Source: Pyrodictiaceae archaeon
GTDB lineage: Archaea; Thermoproteota; Thermoprotei_A; Sulfolobales; Pyrodictiaceae
Assembly (NCBI GenBank): GCA_027036135.1
Contig: JALVSY010000030.1
Coordinates: 246,222-310,221 of the forward strand
Length of the DNA: 64,000 nt
Direction: 5' to 3'
Shown here in pieces: positions 3 through 63,862 of the stretch (the stretch's first letter is position 1; the number at the start of each line of letters is the position of its first letter). The position numbers and the translations under genes were made by a program. The notes beneath the pieces were generated by a model, which was given only the letters and a program-made list of their open reading frames with translations, was not told where the DNA came from and did no database searches.

Positions 3-833
3 AGCATTGATGAACTTAAGTATATCGGTAAGAATGTGTTCCTCATCCATCTAGGGCATGATCCGTATATCTACCCGATCTGTACCGGAGGCACATGCTA
101 TCATAGTTCTCTTCCTAACGTTGTGTTTGTTCCAGGCGAGTATGTGGGAGGTAGTGTTGAGGAAATTGTAGAAAATCTGAGAGAGCTGCTTGGTGCTTCA
201 AAAAGATTAGCTATAGGTTACTCTGTCCAACATCGCATGCTCTCTCATAGTGTTGCAGAAGCTCTAAGTAGGAATGGTTACGATATTAGATTAGTAGCAC
301 CTGTCCTTGGGTGCTATTATTACAACCTTGTCAAGTATAGAGACGTTGTTGATGCGTTTATAGTAATCGCTGGGGGCTACTTCCACTCTCTAGGCCTCGG
401 ACTAGCTCTTGGAGGCGAAAAAACAGTCCTAAGAGCTGATCCCTACTCCAACAAAGTAGAGAATATCGGTGACAAAGTACTACATGTCCTCTCCAAGAGA
501 TACTGGGCCTTATCACTCTTATCAAGTGCTAAATCGCTTGGCATAATAATCGGGTTACTGCCTGGTCAGTACAGGCCTTGGATAGCTAGTTTCATAGAAG
601 CACTGGCTAGGCGTCGAGGAATAAAAACTTACAAACTTTATGCGAGGTATCTTAGCAGAGAAGTTCTCGATAATTTGAGTCCAAGCGATTACGATGCCTT
701 TGTCGTTACGTCTTGTCCTAGACTGGCTATAGATGATTTAGGTGATTATTGGAAACCCGTACTTACGCCAGCTGAGGCCAGGCTATGGCTTACCGATGCT
801 CTTGGTAAATACGGCTATACTTTTCCATGGTGA
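3..833 (+). CDS. dph2: Diphthamide biosynthesis enzyme Dph2 (5' end lies outside the window)
   Basis: HLGH, VLGC, GGYFH and VVTSCPRLAIDD...KPVLTP motifs; frame open to the window edge. Confidence 0.9.
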   Translation, partial: SIDELKYIGKNVFLIHLGHDPYIYPICTGGTCYHSSLPNVVFVPGEYVGGSVEEIVENLRELLGASKRLAIGYSVQHRMLSHSVAEALSRNGYDIRLVAPVLGCYYYNLVKYRDVVDAFIVIAGGYFHSLGLGLALGGEKTVLRADPYSNKVENIGDKVLHVLSKRYWALSLLSSAKSLGIIIGLLPGQYRPWIASFIEALARRRGIKTYKLYARYLSREVLDNLSPSDYDAFVVTSCPRLAIDDLGDYWKPVLTPAEARLWLTDALGKYGYTFPW

Positions 834-841
834 TTAACTAG

Positions 842-1474
842 TTGTTGAAACCTTCACAAATAGTACTTATTTTGGAAAAGAATGTTAAGCGCTTTAGTAA
901 ACCAAAACGTCTTCTCGAACAATACCGCACGCCACCAGAGATAGCTGTTGAGATTGCTCTTTGGTTAAGGAGTATTGGCTGTGAAGTAGTAGTTGACCTA
1001 GGCACAGGTACAGGCATGATAGCCTATGCTTCGTCTCTACTCGGCTTCTATGTCGTCGGAATAGACATTGATAGCGATGCCCTAAAGGATGCTATAGAGT
1101 CAAAGCTCTATAGTAAATTGGCCATAGATTTTGTACAAGCTGATGCCAGATATCTCCCCCTCCGACAAGGTGGCGACAAGTACTGCGTTGCGCAGAATCC
1201 TCCCTTTGGTATACAACGAAAAGGACAAGACACGGTATTTCTTGGAGCAGCTGCTGGGCTCGAGGCTAGTTACATAGCATCAATACATCATGGAGGCTCG
1301 AATAGTGCTCTCAATTACTTAGAAGATTTTATGAAAAAATATGGATACAGGCTTAAGCACATTGAAGCATTTAAGTTCCCAATACCCGCTATGTATCGGA
1401 GCCATACTAGGCGCATCTATTACGCCCCCGCGCTACTACTGCTATTTGAGAGAAAAAGGGTGCACGAGCATTGA
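842..1474 (+). CDS. METTL5-family SAM-dependent RNA methyltransferase
   Basis: LEQYRTPP, DLGTGTG and NPPFG motifs; typical neighbour of dph2/csl4. Confidence 0.88.
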   Translation: MLKPSQIVLILEKNVKRFSKPKRLLEQYRTPPEIAVEIALWLRSIGCEVVVDLGTGTGMIAYASSLLGFYVVGIDIDSDALKDAIESKLYSKLAIDFVQADARYLPLRQGGDKYCVAQNPPFGIQRKGQDTVFLGAAAGLEASYIASIHHGGSNSALNYLEDFMKKYGYRLKHIEAFKFPIPAMYRSHTRRIYYAPALLLLFERKRVHEH

Positions 1475-38596: not shown

Positions 38597-39622
38597 CTAA
38601 GTTTTTAGCTTCGCTATATTTAATACCTTAACTATATCTTCTAGTTTTTCTGAAAATATATTTATAACTTGTTTTTCGTATTTGGTTCCTATAAGTCTAC
38701 ATAATTCGCACCGGCTATAGATGCGATACTTCTTGATTAAAGATTCTACGTCAACTTTAAGCAATTCATCTAGCACCGCATACGGCCCTTTAATACTTAA
38801 CCACCAATAGAAAGGATTTCGCCACATTCTCTTGATTATATCTAGTAACGGTTCTCTTGTAAGGTTACCGATAGTTACTATGCGAGCAGCCTTATCTCTT
38901 ATTATATGACCACAGCAAGCCATTACTGTTCCATCGGGATGTATTGCAAGCGTTGTTCCGATTTCATTGCAGGGCATTTTTAAGCGCAGAATTTGTTTAT
39001 TATACTGCTTTTTATCTATATCAGGCTCGATGGAAACACCTCTACCAAATCTATATACATAGTCCTCGATTATAGTTATATTTTCGCTTATTATATTATT
39101 TTTCTTTAAAAGATTAATTATATACGATCTATTTATTATATCGTTTTCACTATATCTTACAACAGCTATGGCAACTCGTAGTCCTTCCTCAATTGCGGCT
39201 CTAACGGCATTTACTATATTCCTTTCTCCACCATATTTTTCAAGCCATGGCTTGTGGAAATCATCATAACTAACATTAAGCTCATTTAGGCCAGCATTTT
39301 TCAACATAGACACAAGCTTTCTTGATTGTTCGATAGTGCTAGCCCACCACGCATTAGTAACAACCCTTACATTAAAACCCTTATCATATGCATATCTTAC
39401 TGCTTGAAGAAGCCTATTCAAAAACAATGTTGGTTCGCCACCACTTATAGCTATAGTATAAATCGATGGTATCTCTTCTGCATCGTCTACAGCTTTTTTA
39501 AATAATGACAGATCGATTACTGTACTATCTGATGGAGACGCTCTCATTGAGCAATGTTTACAAAAGAAATTGCACTTATACGTGAATATAATTGCCAGTG
39601 TACGAGGAATCATTTTAATCAC
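38597..39622 (-). CDS. Radical SAM/SPASM peptide maturase, YydG(EpeE)-like
   Basis: CNFFCKHC, SGGEP, TNAWWA, NVSYDDFH, C...IHPDG.V.ACC...CELC. Confidence 0.8.
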   Translation of the reverse strand: MIKMIPRTLAIIFTYKCNFFCKHCSMRASPSDSTVIDLSLFKKAVDDAEEIPSIYTIAISGGEPTLFLNRLLQAVRYAYDKGFNVRVVTNAWWASTIEQSRKLVSMLKNAGLNELNVSYDDFHKPWLEKYGGERNIVNAVRAAIEEGLRVAIAVVRYSENDIINRSYIINLLKKNNIISENITIIEDYVYRFGRGVSIEPDIDKKQYNKQILRLKMPCNEIGTTLAIHPDGTVMACCGHIIRDKAARIVTIGNLTREPLLDIIKRMWRNPFYWWLSIKGPYAVLDELLKVDVESLIKKYRIYSRCELCRLIGTKYEKQVINIFSEKLEDIVKVLNIAKLKT

Positions 39623-39624
39623 CT

Positions 39625-40164
39625 CTATGGCCTAGTTGATGCGTTATAACGTTTTATTTCGTTTAGTAATTCTCTATAGGCTTTTTCAATACCTGGATGA
39701 GATATGACAAATAGTTTATTATCATATGTTATTAAAAGAGCTTTTTCTTGCGGCTTATATATTATAGCTATACCGTGTTTGCCATTAGCGAATTTATACC
39801 TACCTAGAGCTAATAGACCAGGAATGGATACTCCGGCTTCCCGGAAAACAGGCTTTACTTTACTATATGGTACTAATGAAATATTAACTTCATTTATGGG
39901 TATTTTATATGTTCTTATATACTTTATTATAATATAGTTATTTTCAATTCCATAACTAACCCCAGAAGTAGTAAGTATCAATACGATGAATGGTATAAGA
40001 GCCAATATGATGATAAATATTATCATATTACGTAATGTTAAGTTGAGTAAAAAACCGGCTAGGATTCCTCCTATTATTGTAAATATAATTGTACCTATAA
40101 ATATGGGATTAAAGATAATTAATTTTAGTATTTTTATATGTGATAAACTATAAATAATCATCAT
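39625..40164 (-). CDS. Membrane protein with a bacterial PH domain
   Basis: Two TM helices, then Y.I....I.I...IP..E....G...PG...G.Y. Confidence 0.7.
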   Translation of the reverse strand: MMIIYSLSHIKILKLIIFNPIFIGTIIFTIIGGILAGFLLNLTLRNMIIFIIILALIPFIVLILTTSGVSYGIENNYIIIKYIRTYKIPINEVNISLVPYSKVKPVFREAGVSIPGLLALGRYKFANGKHGIAIIYKPQEKALLITYDNKLFVISHPGIEKAYRELLNEIKRYNASTRP

Positions 40165-40200: not shown

Positions 40201-40536
40201 CTATACGACAAATTGCGAAAGCGAAACCACAGCTGCGACTATAATTGCTAATACTAATTTATAGGCAATTGCTATGTCTGTTGCAACACCTAGATTAGTG
40301 AAGACGCCAATATTAAGGTAACTTTTTACAGCAATTGCTGTATCTGTATAGAAGAATACATTATCGCTTCCAGGATCAATTTCGATAGGAGTATGTACGT
40401 AATCATCTTTTCTGGTTTTCTCTATTTTCTCAATACTTTTCATTATATTATTTGATATTGTTGCGTACGGGTCAACATCGTATTCTATGTTAAGGCAGTT
40501 AAGATAATTACACTCATGAGTCTTCATATTGCTCAC
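40201..40536 (-). CDS. Putative RiPP precursor peptide
   Basis: Charged N-terminal leader; hydrophobic C-terminal core with 6-residue N/D periodicity. Confidence 0.6.
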   Translation of the reverse strand: MSNMKTHECNYLNCLNIEYDVDPYATISNNIMKSIEKIEKTRKDDYVHTPIEIDPGSDNVFFYTDTAIAVKSYLNIGVFTNLGVATDIAIAYKLVLAIIVAAVVSLSQFVV

Positions 40537-41065
40537 TCACCTTGTCTGCGTGATTTTGTTTAAGTCGTTTCTTAGTATTTTCATGTATCTTTCTAATTTT
40601 TTCATATTATACTTTTGAGCATTTATTATTATTAAATCTATTATTTCTTTATTATCTATTATATTATCACTTTTTAAATATAAGGATATATCTTCTACAA
40701 GGTACTCTAAATCATCGGCATAGGCCACTACAACGCTTTTCTCGTTCTCACTTATAACGGCCAAGAATGGCTCTACTAAGCCATTTATTATACCTTTAAA
40801 TGTATACGTCTGCGTTCTTACACTCTTTAAAGTTTTGCCATGTTTACTTATGTAAGTTTGTGTCACAACATACATTAATTTATGTGTTTCAAAGCTGTAT
40901 TCTTTAATGGTCTTTATGTTTGTCGTGATCTGCAGCTCACTTAAATTTTGGGGATTCATACTTCTTGCAATGCTAAATACAGGCGATAGTAAATGCATCA
41001 AGGAGGTCAGTAGAAGGCCGCTTATAAACTTTCGTCTTGATATATATATATATATCTGTCAACAT
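40537..41065 (-). CDS. Tat-signal secreted protein, out of frame in an (AT)8 tract
   Basis: SD GGAG + ATG 41065; SRRKFI + hydrophobic stretch is in frame with ORF 40537-41001 but one base off from the ATG. Confidence 0.65.
41040..41055. repeat. (AT)8 microsatellite
   Basis: Read directly. Confidence 0.95.
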
Positions 41066-41366
41066 TATCACTCTCCGTTCGTCTCCAAGTGGTTTGAGCA
41101 TTTATTTAAAAGCGTTACTTATATATGTTTGTTAACTAGATTTCTTCTAGTAGAGCAAGTTATCTTTAAAAGAGGGCTACTGTGTAACGTAGACCTTTAA
41201 AGTGATTCACTTAGTAGGAATATAATATAGTATCTAATTTCAGAATTGCTTAAAATGCTAGCTGGCGCTACGGAACCATAGGTAAATGGTATAATATGGC
41301 TAAGAATAGCAGGAATCGCTAAATAGCTTTGTAATAGGTTCGTGAGGCATTAAGGATGGTGTATAG

Positions 41367-42311
41367 ATGGTGTTGCTCGAGATATATAAGTTGACGAAGA
41401 TATATGATGACCGTGTTGTTGCTCTCCGGGATTTTAGCCTTGCTTATGATAGGGGGTCTTCTATAATTGTTCTTGTTGGTCCTAATGGTGCTGGGAAGAC
41501 TACTCTTCTTAGGATTCTTGCAGGTCAGCTTAGGCCTACTAGTGGTACTGCTAGGGTGTTTGGCTACGACCTTGTTAGGGATGTGGATAAGGTTGTTGGT
41601 GTTGTAGCGTTTCTTCCGCAGGGTATTCGTGCGCCTTTCTATAACCTTACGCCCTGGGACTATATTGTCTCGTATCTCTTGATCCGGGGGTATAGTCTAG
41701 GGGATGCGAGGCGTAGGGCTAGGGAGATGCTTGAGCTTTTCTCGCTAGAAGAGTACGCATCTGTCCCTGTCTCGAAGCTTTCTGGTGGGACTGTGAGGAG
41801 GGCTTTGATAGCTTCCGTCTTGGCTGACGAGAGTGCTGAGTTGTTCTTGCTTGATGAGCCTCTTCCAGGGCTTGATCCAAGGTCGAGGATGATATTTTGG
41901 AGTGTTATTCGCCGTGTTGTGAGGGATGGACGGCTTGCTATAGTATCTTCTCACTATACCGAGGACTTGCCGCTGGTAGCTGACTATGTTGTTGTGCTTA
42001 GTAGGGGTAAGAAGATAGCTGAAGGAAATCCCAGTAATGTGATAAGAGATGTGCTAGGGCCTTGTAGCTATAAGGTTATAATAAGAAGTCGTTACTCTAC
42101 AAACGGTACAAGTATTGAAAGCTCTATAGATGCTTTGAGAGAAAGTAGTAATGGTGTTTGCCGATTTGTGAGATTGGGCGAGGATACTGTTATCGTGTAT
42201 GCTAGTAGTCCTCAGCATGTTGTTAGTGTTGCCGAGTATTATGGCCTTGATGTTGAGGTTGCACCGGTAGGCCTTGGCGATATAGTGCTGGCCCTGGGTG
42301 AGAGGGGGTGA
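41367..42311 (+). CDS. ABC exporter ATP-binding subunit
   Basis: GPNGAGKTT, LSGG, LLDEP, SSH. Confidence 0.93.
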   Translation: MVLLEIYKLTKIYDDRVVALRDFSLAYDRGSSIIVLVGPNGAGKTTLLRILAGQLRPTSGTARVFGYDLVRDVDKVVGVVAFLPQGIRAPFYNLTPWDYIVSYLLIRGYSLGDARRRAREMLELFSLEEYASVPVSKLSGGTVRRALIASVLADESAELFLLDEPLPGLDPRSRMIFWSVIRRVVRDGRLAIVSSHYTEDLPLVADYVVVLSRGKKIAEGNPSNVIRDVLGPCSYKVIIRSRYSTNGTSIESSIDALRESSNGVCRFVRLGEDTVIVYASSPQHVVSVAEYYGLDVEVAPVGLGDIVLALGERG

Positions 42312-43039
42312 GGAGGCAGCTTCGCTCCCTATTCGGTCTTCTATACTTCTACTCCATGGCGTACATCCTGCGCTCTCCGCTATCAGTGCCGTTACTCGTT
42401 TTCCGTATGAGTGTTTTCGTGATACTATTAACCCTCGTTGGTGGCCACGAGTACGCTGTCTATGCGCTCTCAGGCGCCCTCGTTGCCCTGGCCTTCGGAG
42501 CTGGTCTCTCACAATTCTCGGTTGATATTAACGCGCTTAGAGTCTCGGGTTATAGGTACATACTGCTTACTGCACCGTTAGGGCCGGCTACCTTCGCTAT
42601 TGGGACGGCTCTCGGTATGAGTCTCTTATCATTTGTAGGATTAACGGTGTTCTTCCTACCATGGTACTATATTTGTCACCCGGGGCTCCAGGGGGTTCTT
42701 GAGCTTGGATTGGTTCTTGCACTAACGTGGCTTATAGGGCTCTCAATAGGCTTCCTACTATCAATCCTTATTAGGACACCGCATGTGCTCTTCAACGTCA
42801 CGGACACTGTTTACGCGCTACTAGTTTACCTAATGCCCGTATACTACCCGATAGAGCTACTTCCTCAATCACTAAGACCGCTAACACTAATATCGCCAGC
42901 CACGCACGCTGGCATCCTTGTTAGAGAAATAGCAGTAGAAGGCCACATAGTATCCCCATTAAACATGTACGTCATCATAGTCGTTGCTGCAGCGTTACTG
43001 GCACTAATATCGAGGATATCTAAGTGGAGAGAAGCCTAA
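42308..43039 (+). CDS. ABC-2 type permease
   Basis: Six TM helices, PVYYP..LLP..L. Confidence 0.88.
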   Translation: MRRQLRSLFGLLYFYSMAYILRSPLSVPLLVFRMSVFVILLTLVGGHEYAVYALSGALVALAFGAGLSQFSVDINALRVSGYRYILLTAPLGPATFAIGTALGMSLLSFVGLTVFFLPWYYICHPGLQGVLELGLVLALTWLIGLSIGFLLSILIRTPHVLFNVTDTVYALLVYLMPVYYPIELLPQSLRPLTLISPATHAGILVREIAVEGHIVSPLNMYVIIVVAAALLALISRISKWREA

Positions 43040-45650: not shown

Positions 45651-45769
45651 GCCGCCGTAGCTCAGCCCGGTTAGAGCGCCGGACTCATACGGGCGCCCCG
45701 GTCCACCGGAGTCGCCGGGGGCCCTGGGGGATCCGGTCGTCCCGGGTTCGAATCCCGGCGGCGGCACCA
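45651..45769 (+). tRNA. tRNA-Met(CAT), elongator type, with a 41-nt intron at 37/38 (45690-45730)
   Basis: GCCGCCG...CGGCGGC ACCA; CCGGA-CTCATA|intron|A-TCCGG. Confidence 0.95.
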
Positions 45770-63363: not shown

Positions 63364-63720
63364 TTGAACATCGTACTAGGCCTTGACTCAACGGTATCGT
63401 TGCTAGAGAACATACAACTATTCCTCATAGTATTCGTACTAATAGTATACGGCATGGGTGCTCCAAAGAAAATAGTCCTTGCAACACTATACCTAATGGC
63501 AATACTACACATAGCATTCATAATATCATACGCAAAGGCATATGGGCTCAAACTAGTAATAAGACCATTCCTAGACATATTCATACAAACAAGCACAGAA
63601 AGAGCATCAGCAATGATAGACGTAGCACAAATAATCATAGCGATAATCATAATAGATTATGTATTATCAATTCTGCGCAGGAGAAAGGAAAGTCAAGTAA
63701 GAGAAAGGAAAGTCAAGTAA
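63364..63720 (+). CDS. Small membrane protein
   Basis: Three hydrophobic helices, basic tail. Confidence 0.6.
   Translation: MNIVLGLDSTVSLLENIQLFLIVFVLIVYGMGAPKKIVLATLYLMAILHIAFIISYAKAYGLKLVIRPFLDIFIQTSTERASAMIDVAQIIIAIIIIDYVLSILRRRKESQVRERKVK
63681..63720 (+). repeat. Perfect 20-bp tandem duplication GAGAAAGGAAAGTCAAGTAA x2
   Basis: Read directly. Confidence 0.95.
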
Positions 63721-63784: not shown

Positions 63785-63862
63785 GCCGCGGTAGTATAGC
63801 CCGGCCAAGTATGCGGGCCTCTCGAGCCCGTGACCCGGGTTCAAATCCCGGCCGCGGCACCA
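63785..63862 (+). tRNA. tRNA-Glu(CTC)
   Basis: GCCGCGG...CCGCGGC ACCA; CGGGC-CTCTCGA-GCCCG. Confidence 0.97.

Follow-up and report, generated by a model that had tools for sequence, protein, structure and literature searches.

Organization of the locus

Could a simple sequence repeat switch a chromosomal gene on and off in an archaeon? We consider this question for a stretch of 64,000 nucleotides (nt), referred to here as the window, from a Pyrodictiaceae archaeon (GenBank assembly GCA_027036135.1, contig JALVSY010000030.1, positions 246,222 to 310,221 of the forward strand). On its minus strand lies a cassette of four genes, which encode, in this order, a putative exported protein, a small hydrophobic peptide, a membrane protein and a radical S-adenosylmethionine (SAM)/SPASM enzyme. 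An (AT)8 tract at 41040..41055 stands at the head of the first gene. The sequence-only reading of this DNA had proposed that the tract switches off a hidden gene for a protein with a twin-arginine translocation (Tat) signal. The analysis presented here points to a tract that has slipped repeatedly in nature and that may act as a frameshift switch.

The layout that had been described, namely a Shine-Dalgarno-like site, an ATG, the (AT)8 tract and an SRRKFI motif in frame with open reading frame (ORF) 40537-41001, is borne out by the sequence. The Shine-Dalgarno-like site, GGAGAGTGAT (41067..41076, minus strand), ends 1 nt short of the ATG at 41063..41065 (minus strand), which is the start codon of the full-length gene and whose frame differs from that of the gene body as assembled. 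Directly after this ATG (41065-41063) follow TTG ACA G, then the eight AT units and then a C, with the tract beginning 10 nt past the A of the ATG. The tract, a putative slippage site that is seen in the sequence and reported by Tandem Repeats Finder, is a perfect short-unit repeat close to the coding region's 5' end; it has a G on one side and a C on the other, and G(AT)8C is a perfect palindrome. The codons TCA AGA CGA AAG TTT ATA (41023..41040, minus strand) translate into the twin-arginine motif SRRKFI and share the frame of ORF 40537-41001, whose listed start is TTG 41001. As judged from translation, shuffles and homologues, the frame is open for 173 codons plus the stop (40537..41058, minus strand; stop codon at 40537-40539) and would encode an exported protein of an uncharacterised family. 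As assembled, a TGA at 41059..41061 (minus strand) closes the Tat frame upstream of the tract, and no ATG, GTG or TTG occurs in that frame between TGA 41061-41059 and the twin arginine.

Counted from the A of the ATG, the T of the serine codon TCA is reached after 25 nt with eight units and generally after 9+2n nt with n units, so that n = 6 or 9 is in frame, while 7 and 8 are not. ATG 41065 is therefore one base off the Tat frame in this assembly, and only six or nine units join the two, exactly as had been claimed. A further consequence of the 25-nt distance is that reading in the ATG frame runs for 30 codons and then meets TAG 40975-40973. This out-of-frame OFF product occupies 40973..41065 (minus strand), in the same frame as ORF 40973-41101. 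With seven units, as read from the sequence, the reading from the ATG would stop after 13 codons. None of 20,000 shuffles (0/20,000) kept the 173-codon window frame open, and the other two frames hold 33 and 14 stops.

The 3' end of the 16S ribosomal RNA (rRNA) of the same genome, GGATCACCTCCT, pairs with GGAGAGTGAT at 9 positions with a one-base bulge; the pairing segment within the Shine-Dalgarno-like site is GGAG-A-GTGAT, where the middle A is bulged. This pairing supports ATG 41065 as a real start. A TATA-box-like sequence, TTTAAATA, is located at 41103..41110 (minus strand). Judging from the archaeal TATA consensus and spacing, this element as a promoter would put the transcript start near 41080, which is downstream of ATG 41101. 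Two other ways of initiation were considered and rejected: ATG 41101 shares its frame with ATG 41065, but it overlaps the TATA-like box and has no counterpart in the paralogue described below, and AUA initiation within the tract is without support.

A rare tract and a paralogous cassette

Tandem Repeats Finder returned 32 rows for the window, among which (AT)8 is the sole period-2 array, in agreement with the earlier remark that no other comparable dinucleotide tract is present in the window. Even (AT)6 occurs in the window only inside this tract, with 0.01 occurrences expected from 100 shuffles. In the whole genome (G000; 2,205,677 nt) there are 20 period-2 runs of at least 10 nt, and only 4 reach at least 14 nt, all of them AT. 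Two of these four are the window site and the homologous site of a paralogue, and the remaining two are intergenic (G000:C16:479248-479264, 17 nt, and G000:C7:60372-60387, 16 nt). Of these two, the one on C16 is about 70 nt upstream of the ATG of a membrane-protein-like ORF and may be a variable promoter element there.

One paralogue was found by the genome search, at G000:C7:557462-557962. Its order is GGTGAT, six bases, ATG GTA GAT G, (AT)7, C and TAGG AGA AAA TTT CTA; that is, an ATG is followed by 7 nt, by seven AT units and then by SRRKFL, which is out of frame with the ATG and whose frame is closed upstream by a TGA. The paralogue also follows 9+2n, and six or nine units would restore its frame. 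After the upstream TGA, no ATG, GTG or TTG is found in the paralogue frame until a GTG 48 codons in, well past conserved residues, and hence a downstream start cannot rescue it. This 173-codon frame was likewise open in 0/20,000 shuffles, the other frames of the two copies hold 14-33 stops, and the guanine plus cytosine (GC) content is about 31-34% in both 173-codon frames. The two first-gene proteins are 38% identical over 172 residues. Within the motif, their codons show four synonymous differences (window/paralogue: TCA/TCT, AGA/AGG, CGA/AGA and AAG/AAA), which signals selection on the protein. The paralogous cassette has four genes and is also a low-GC island. Its radical SAM enzyme is 48.5% identical to that of the window and its membrane protein 35% (193 amino acids, aa, against 179 aa in the window), while the small peptides of the two cassettes are not alignable.

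Could the tract instead be the TATA box of an internal promoter, with the real start at TTG 41001 or ATG 40998? An (AT)n run does match the archaeal TATA box, public gene callers chose ATG 40998 (P0002, 153 aa), and both remaining long AT tracts of the genome lie between genes. However, the paralogue has no start before its 48th codon or so, beyond the conserved residues, and SRRKF and the stretch that follows are conserved as protein, with synonymous changes. In addition, relatives start upstream with the twin-arginine motif: the paralogue, the homologues P0004 and P0018 and 5/5 cassettes of genus g116 (see below) have the twin arginine behind an upstream ATG, and not the downstream start that the sequence-only reading had named as the alternative. 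We therefore regard an internal promoter as highly improbable.

Recoding has to be considered as well, that is, slippage of RNA polymerase or of the ribosome on (AU)n, so that the DNA length merely tunes the amount of product. It would account for the fact that both copies are out of frame in one genome, yet well preserved, and the accessible text of a study on Helicobacter pylori sabA describes a comparison of CT-tract lengths between genomic DNA and complementary DNA clones (PMC2715451). But the window needs a shift of +1 (or -2) and the paralogue one of -1 (or +2), and because the needed shifts are opposite, one fixed ribosomal shift cannot serve both copies. Moreover, no slippery heptamer or stimulatory element was seen, although none was specifically sought, and the differences in length at the DNA level that are described in the next section suffice alone. 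Recoding thus appears very unlikely.

Tract length in wild assemblies

Four public vent-metagenome runs were aligned to positions 40500-41400 of the window (901 nt), and the tract lengths were read from contigs, which give one majority form per sample. In X2 (study P1), the possible source of the window DNA, a contig of 6878 nt at depth 67 has 2 letters missing at 41040 (n=7) and 0 other changes, so that the tract is the sole difference from the window. In X3 (study P2), n=7 is found again, on a contig of 3594 nt at depth 10.4 with 1 base change. A contig of 268 nt from X4 (study P3; depth 3.4), spanning 40911-41178, shows no gap (n=8) and no other change. Finally, X5 (study P2) provides a contig of 9297 nt at depth 64 with 4 letters missing (n=6, in frame), together with 4 base changes and a 5-nt deletion at 41219. 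The sole X5 change within the frame, as read from the sequence, is at 40816; it falls on an arginine codon, in the third position, and leaves the amino acid unchanged. That is, an ON (in-frame) allele exists in the wild. Including the window, the five assemblies have n=6 once, n=7 twice and n=8 twice, with 0-4 other base changes per 901 nt. Since 6, 7 and 8 units occur among near-identical DNA, the tract changes faster than base substitutions accumulate. If X2 is the source sample of the window, the disagreement between 7 and 8 units would be a hint, and no more, of a mixed population.

Also in X5, a second contig (record 11, 2703 nt) gives an ungapped match to 41015-41056 with 5 mismatches, the same as the count of window/paralogue differences downstream of the tract, and its flank matches the paralogue start region. 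This match pattern suggests that a paralogue-like copy with 8 units is present in that sample.

Some of the other changes fall into the intergenic region between the cassette and an ABC transporter. For X5 these are the base changes at 41115, 41160 and 41189 and the 5-nt deletion at 41219, and for X3 the base change at 41208; the X5 change at 41115 is 5 nt from the TATA-like box. Apart from the tract, the deletion in this upstream intergenic DNA of X5 is the only indel in any run.

Errors are frequent in dinucleotide runs, and X2, which may be the source run, has 7 units against 8 in the window, as might be expected of an assembly or sequencing artefact at a low-complexity site. However, at 16 nt the tract is shorter than the words of 31 letters assumed for contig building, the lengths are carried by contigs at depth 64-67, n=8 recurs in an independent study (X4) and n=7 in two studies. 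An artefact is barely credible on this evidence. The sequence-only reading had allowed for an assembly error with an in-frame length throughout; because independent assemblies carry 6, 7 and 8 units, the out-of-frame length is not a mere error of this assembly.

The putative exported protein and its family

The hidden gene is real: its frame of 173 codons is conserved and belongs to a small protein family. Searched exhaustively with HMMER, this family has 15 representatives at E <= 0.001, of which 5 reach E <= 1e-10, and two representatives are themselves out-of-frame gene calls, P0002 (window, 153 aa) and P0007 (paralogue, 125 aa). The closest other homologue, P0004, is 43% identical and has the N-terminus M-P-I-Y-I-S-R-R-K-F-L, in which the length of I-Y-I equals that of the n=6 window allele. 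P0018 is 89% identical to P0004 and differs only upstream of I-Y-I-S, where it has M-I-F-H-V-K-G-Y and P0004 has M-P. Such a difference would be expected if tracts of unequal length were read from distinct upstream starts, and the pair would be consistent with a third lineage of the cassette whose AT tract varies.

The Tat motif has a consensus of the type S/T-R-R-x-F-L-K, and S-R-R-K-F-I (window) and S-R-R-K-F-L (paralogue) fit it. According to translation and alignment, the motif of the window is followed by an uncharged hydrophobic stretch (40966..41022, minus strand), which ends in a conserved SP.FSIA, then R, and is likely the h-region plus the signal-peptidase site; none of the 21 residues F11-A31 is a D, E, K or R. 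Across the family alignment, the hydrophobic stretch is kept, as is an AP.LS.AR-like motif. The genome also encodes Tat machinery, namely TatC (113 bits) and TatA, the latter with two genes (67.5 and 63.8 bits). The Tat assignment is made because of the motif, the 21-residue uncharged stretch, its S-I-A/R end and this machinery.

Among the other 11 N-terminally complete representatives, the arginine pair is found in 5 (P0004, P0005, P0009, P0013 and P0014). Several results weigh on the other side. The pair is missing in the remaining 6/11 (P0006, P0010, P0011, P0012, P0015 and P0016). The Tat-signal model TIGR01409 matched only P0018, at 14.2 bits versus a cut-off of 16.7, and gave no match to the window protein at E <= 10, where it is noted that such short models are often filtered out. 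Foldseek found no match in PDB to the model of the exported protein at E <= 0.001, and the best hit of the VIA wide structure search (Z 7.4, 80 residues aligned) is within background.

The AlphaFold model has a mean predicted local distance difference test (pLDDT) score of 83.9 and consists of an N-terminal helix, a six-stranded sheet and two C-terminal helices; the predicted N-terminal helix (residues 2-32) is of low confidence, with a pLDDT of about 60. That a hydrophobic half-barrel of this model might bind the modified peptide outside the cell is an unsupported guess. Pfam has no family for the exported protein, NCBIfam gave sub-threshold chance rows only, and the best score in the protein Atlas was 0.76, to an unnamed cluster.

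The distribution of the family is patchy. Searched against 61 relatives, the window protein matched only in its own genome, the 4 other rows having E >= 0.037, and none of the 28 further genomes of the organism's own family gave a match at E <= 0.01. The class search gave matches in 2/351 genomes counting G000, the other being partial (E 3e-7), and the phylum sample in 5/401 genomes counting G000, the remaining four all belonging to genus g116. Within this genus, a family match is present in 5/18 genomes. The genome-contig search, with the single protein and with a 3-sequence alignment, found no relative. A metagenome locus, L007, was rejected as a relative, since it has a chance AYADDEEY match inside a 715-aa protein.

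Other genes of the cassette, relatives in genus g116 and genomic setting

The product of the second gene of the window cassette (40201..40536, minus strand; ORF list) is a peptide of 111 aa whose C-terminal half is hydrophobic. It is a candidate for a precursor or for a small membrane protein, and its place is conserved among the cassettes. It has no Pfam family and no NCBIfam match at E <= 0.1, and so no match to YydF-family precursors. The third gene (39625..40164, minus strand; ORF list) encodes the 179-aa membrane protein. The fourth (38597..39622, minus strand) encodes the radical SAM/SPASM enzyme (Radical_SAM 58.1 bits, SPASM 29.1 bits), whose nearest named family is YydG. TIGR04078 (YydG) is its best-scoring named family, at 96.5 bits, far from the cut-off of 300, and the enzyme is best described from its sequence as YydG-like and not as a YydG equivalog. 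The sequence-only reading had called the cassette an operon for a ribosomally synthesized, post-translationally modified peptide (RiPP). The radical SAM/SPASM enzyme nearest to YydG and the small hydrophobic peptide gene speak for this label, the score far below the YydG cut-off does not, and 'RiPP operon' is thus plausible but unproven.

In genus g116, the head regions of the cassettes were read at five loci, L013-L017, with L022 left out. The family gene occupies the first position of the cassette at 5/5 loci. At L013-L016, the genes behind it encode a small hydrophobic peptide and a radical SAM enzyme; at L017, a radical SAM gene and a membrane-protein fragment come next. RRE[FAT]L occurs 14-24 residues after the ATG in 5/5 cassettes.

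The promoters of these loci present a separate observation. At 5/5 of L013-L017, AAGCTTAAA-like TATA elements are located 24-26 nt before the first-gene ATG, which suggests leaderless transcripts. Between the TATA element and the ATG there are A runs of 7, 10, 8, 8 and 6 bases at L013 to L017, respectively, and L017 also has a (GC)5-type dinucleotide run there. These A runs may represent a repeat switch that sets promoter spacing, or no more than an A-rich promoter element.

Divergent from the window cassette, at 41367-43039 on the plus strand, lies an ABC-2 type (ATP-binding cassette) transporter pair, consisting of an ATPase nearest DrrA (164 bits, below the cut-off) and a permease. It was considered as part of the cassette and rejected, being missing beside the paralogue and, as far as fetched, at the g116 loci, and the pair probably represents host genes.

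The host genome comprises 2.2 Mb in 40 contigs, is 99.6% complete and has 49.7% GC. Its small- and large-subunit rRNAs match archaeal Rfam models (1463.5 and 1115.5 bits, respectively, after clan competition). All organism-labelled runs with this DNA are hydrothermal vent metagenomes, and three runs are unlabelled. The window cassette forms an island of 31-39% GC between neighbours of 45-63% GC. Elsewhere in the window, a transfer RNA (tRNA) match at 45651-45766 (plus strand) measures 116 nt against a 71-position model and is probably intron-bearing; this group of archaea commonly has tRNA introns. At 63681-63720, a 20-nt sequence is perfectly duplicated in direct tandem (GAGAAAGGAAAGTCAAGTAA x2), about 65 nt upstream of the tRNA at 63785-63859.

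Interpretation

With moderate confidence, we interpret the tract as a frameshift switch that works by slipped-strand events and controls the leading gene of a radical-SAM peptide cassette; in this assembly the switch is OFF. Replication slippage would add or remove AT units. With 6 or 9 units, ATG 41065, preceded by its Shine-Dalgarno-like site, would come into frame and be read as MLTD, I-Y-I, the twin-arginine signal and the mature domain, and a Tat-exported protein of about 150 residues would be made. In the OFF state, translation from the ATG would stop after 13 codons (n=7) or after 30 codons (n=8, this assembly). The switch probably acts mainly on the exported protein, because the downstream genes have their own start sites. 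The second, anciently diverged cassette of the same genome would be gated likewise.

The slip is probably recurrent and reversible rather than a single inactivating event, since three lengths are found in near-identical DNA and the tract is kept in a 38%-identical paralogue. Of the earlier proposal, which left phase variation and an inactivating slip side by side, recurrent slippage is favoured by the lengths 6, 7 and 8, whereas switching within one lineage goes further than these alleles do. Reversibility of that kind, like export, the ON and OFF states of the protein and any benefit, is something we infer from the sequences.

The main rival is neutral instability in a dying accessory gene, where the OFF lengths are unselected and n=6 is the ancestral state that is not yet broken. 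A number of facts weigh on its side or against a switch. Four of the five assemblies and both cassettes of this genome are OFF, and a gene on its way out looks alike. The n=8 of X4 comes from one contig at depth 3.4, and all runs are contigs with a single majority form each, blind to mixtures within a population. The cassette is patchy, as described above for genus g116 (5/18 genomes) and for the 28 other genomes of the window organism's own family (no match at E <= 0.01), and broken copies occur: at L017 the first gene is interrupted by TGA, TAA and a frameshift, so the cassette family decays elsewhere, and at L016 the radical SAM gene (215-1221, minus strand) is split into overlapping pieces of 104 aa and 246 aa and looks frameshifted. 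However, two OFF lengths and an ON length are found among sequences with 0-4 base differences per 901 nt, so that the tract must have slipped repeatedly, not once. In addition, the two 38%-identical paralogues both keep a pure tract and an open 173-codon frame, which long inactivity would not preserve, and the codons of the twin-arginine motif differ only synonymously. Consequently, we consider decay unlikely, and a slipped-strand switch remains the reading that we prefer.

A wider claim may be ventured, to which we give nearly as much credence as doubt: a contingency system of two loci, under selection, in a hyperthermophilic archaeon from vents, in which two anciently diverged cassettes are each gated by (AT)n, and in which the tract would have been selected through at least three lineages (the window, the C7 paralogue and P0004/P0018). 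If this is true, wild populations would mix cells that display the exported component with cells that do not, for instance to hedge against viruses or competitors, and the locus would be the first case from a natural population, among those we could find, in which a repeat drives the phase variation of an archaeal chromosomal gene.

Phase variation driven by repeats is known from textbooks as a way in which host-associated bacteria hedge their bets. The present locus offers a concrete and testable archaeal case, which is free-living and of high temperature, with natural alleles in public data and a paralogue as internal replicate. Attention is drawn as well to an exported protein family that is uncharacterised and to a four-gene radical-SAM cassette conserved in archaea of the Thermoproteota type.

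Comparison with known systems

In the literature, as far as the sources could be consulted in part, no chromosomal archaeal gene switched by a simple repeat was found, the nearest cases being archaeal viruses, and an unseen case is possible. Surveys that include archaea are, in their accessible portions, statistical and name no switching archaeal locus (PMC3315296, PMC2831843). According to the available part of a 2025 review, a future expansion of the distributions of phase-variable loci over archaeal phylogenies may inform evolutionary explanations (PMC11868660). For the archaeal virus SMV1, the accessible text describes a reversible change in repeat copy number, which its authors liken to the slippage of simple sequence repeats (PMC12199143). 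There, as far as that text goes, a repeat element, Sader, is added to or deleted from a virus, whereas here a frameshift tract lies in a chromosomal gene.

Regarding the cassette, an outline of the Bacillus subtilis yydFGHIJ epipeptide locus is given in the portion consulted of PMC7026026. In line with that outline, a small peptide gene here adjoins a radical SAM/SPASM enzyme with YydG as its nearest named family. Unlike yydFGHIJ, the present cassette has no YydF-like precursor match and no protease gene, and it has a Tat-type exported protein and a different membrane protein. To our knowledge, no repeat switch is known in yyd.

Regarding the tract, the hif fimbrial switch of Haemophilus influenzae depends on (TA)n length changes by slippage, which set expression, the tract being located between promoter elements. 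Slippage of a TA/AT dinucleotide is common to both systems, but hif acts on transcription, whereas the tract here lies in the coding region and would act on the frame. In H. pylori, oipA, hopZ and sabB have a CT dinucleotide repeat in the 5' coding region. The same is described in the accessible text for sabA, where the CT repeat is in frame only at 7 or 10 units, for example, and strains carry both kinds of allele (PMC2715451). As in sabA, the dinucleotide repeat here is in the 5' coding region and every third length is in frame. In contrast to sabA, the organism is an archaeon of hydrothermal vents, the unit is AT, self-complementary and TATA-like, and the gene encodes not an adhesin but a protein with a twin-arginine-type signal, at the head of a radical-SAM peptide cassette. 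Within-strain switching has been shown for sabA, while the present locus is known through the sequences of its alleles. Accordingly, this kind of frameshift switch is already known, for instance from sabA, and what is new here is its setting in an archaeon, with AT as the unit, a Tat signal and paired cassettes.

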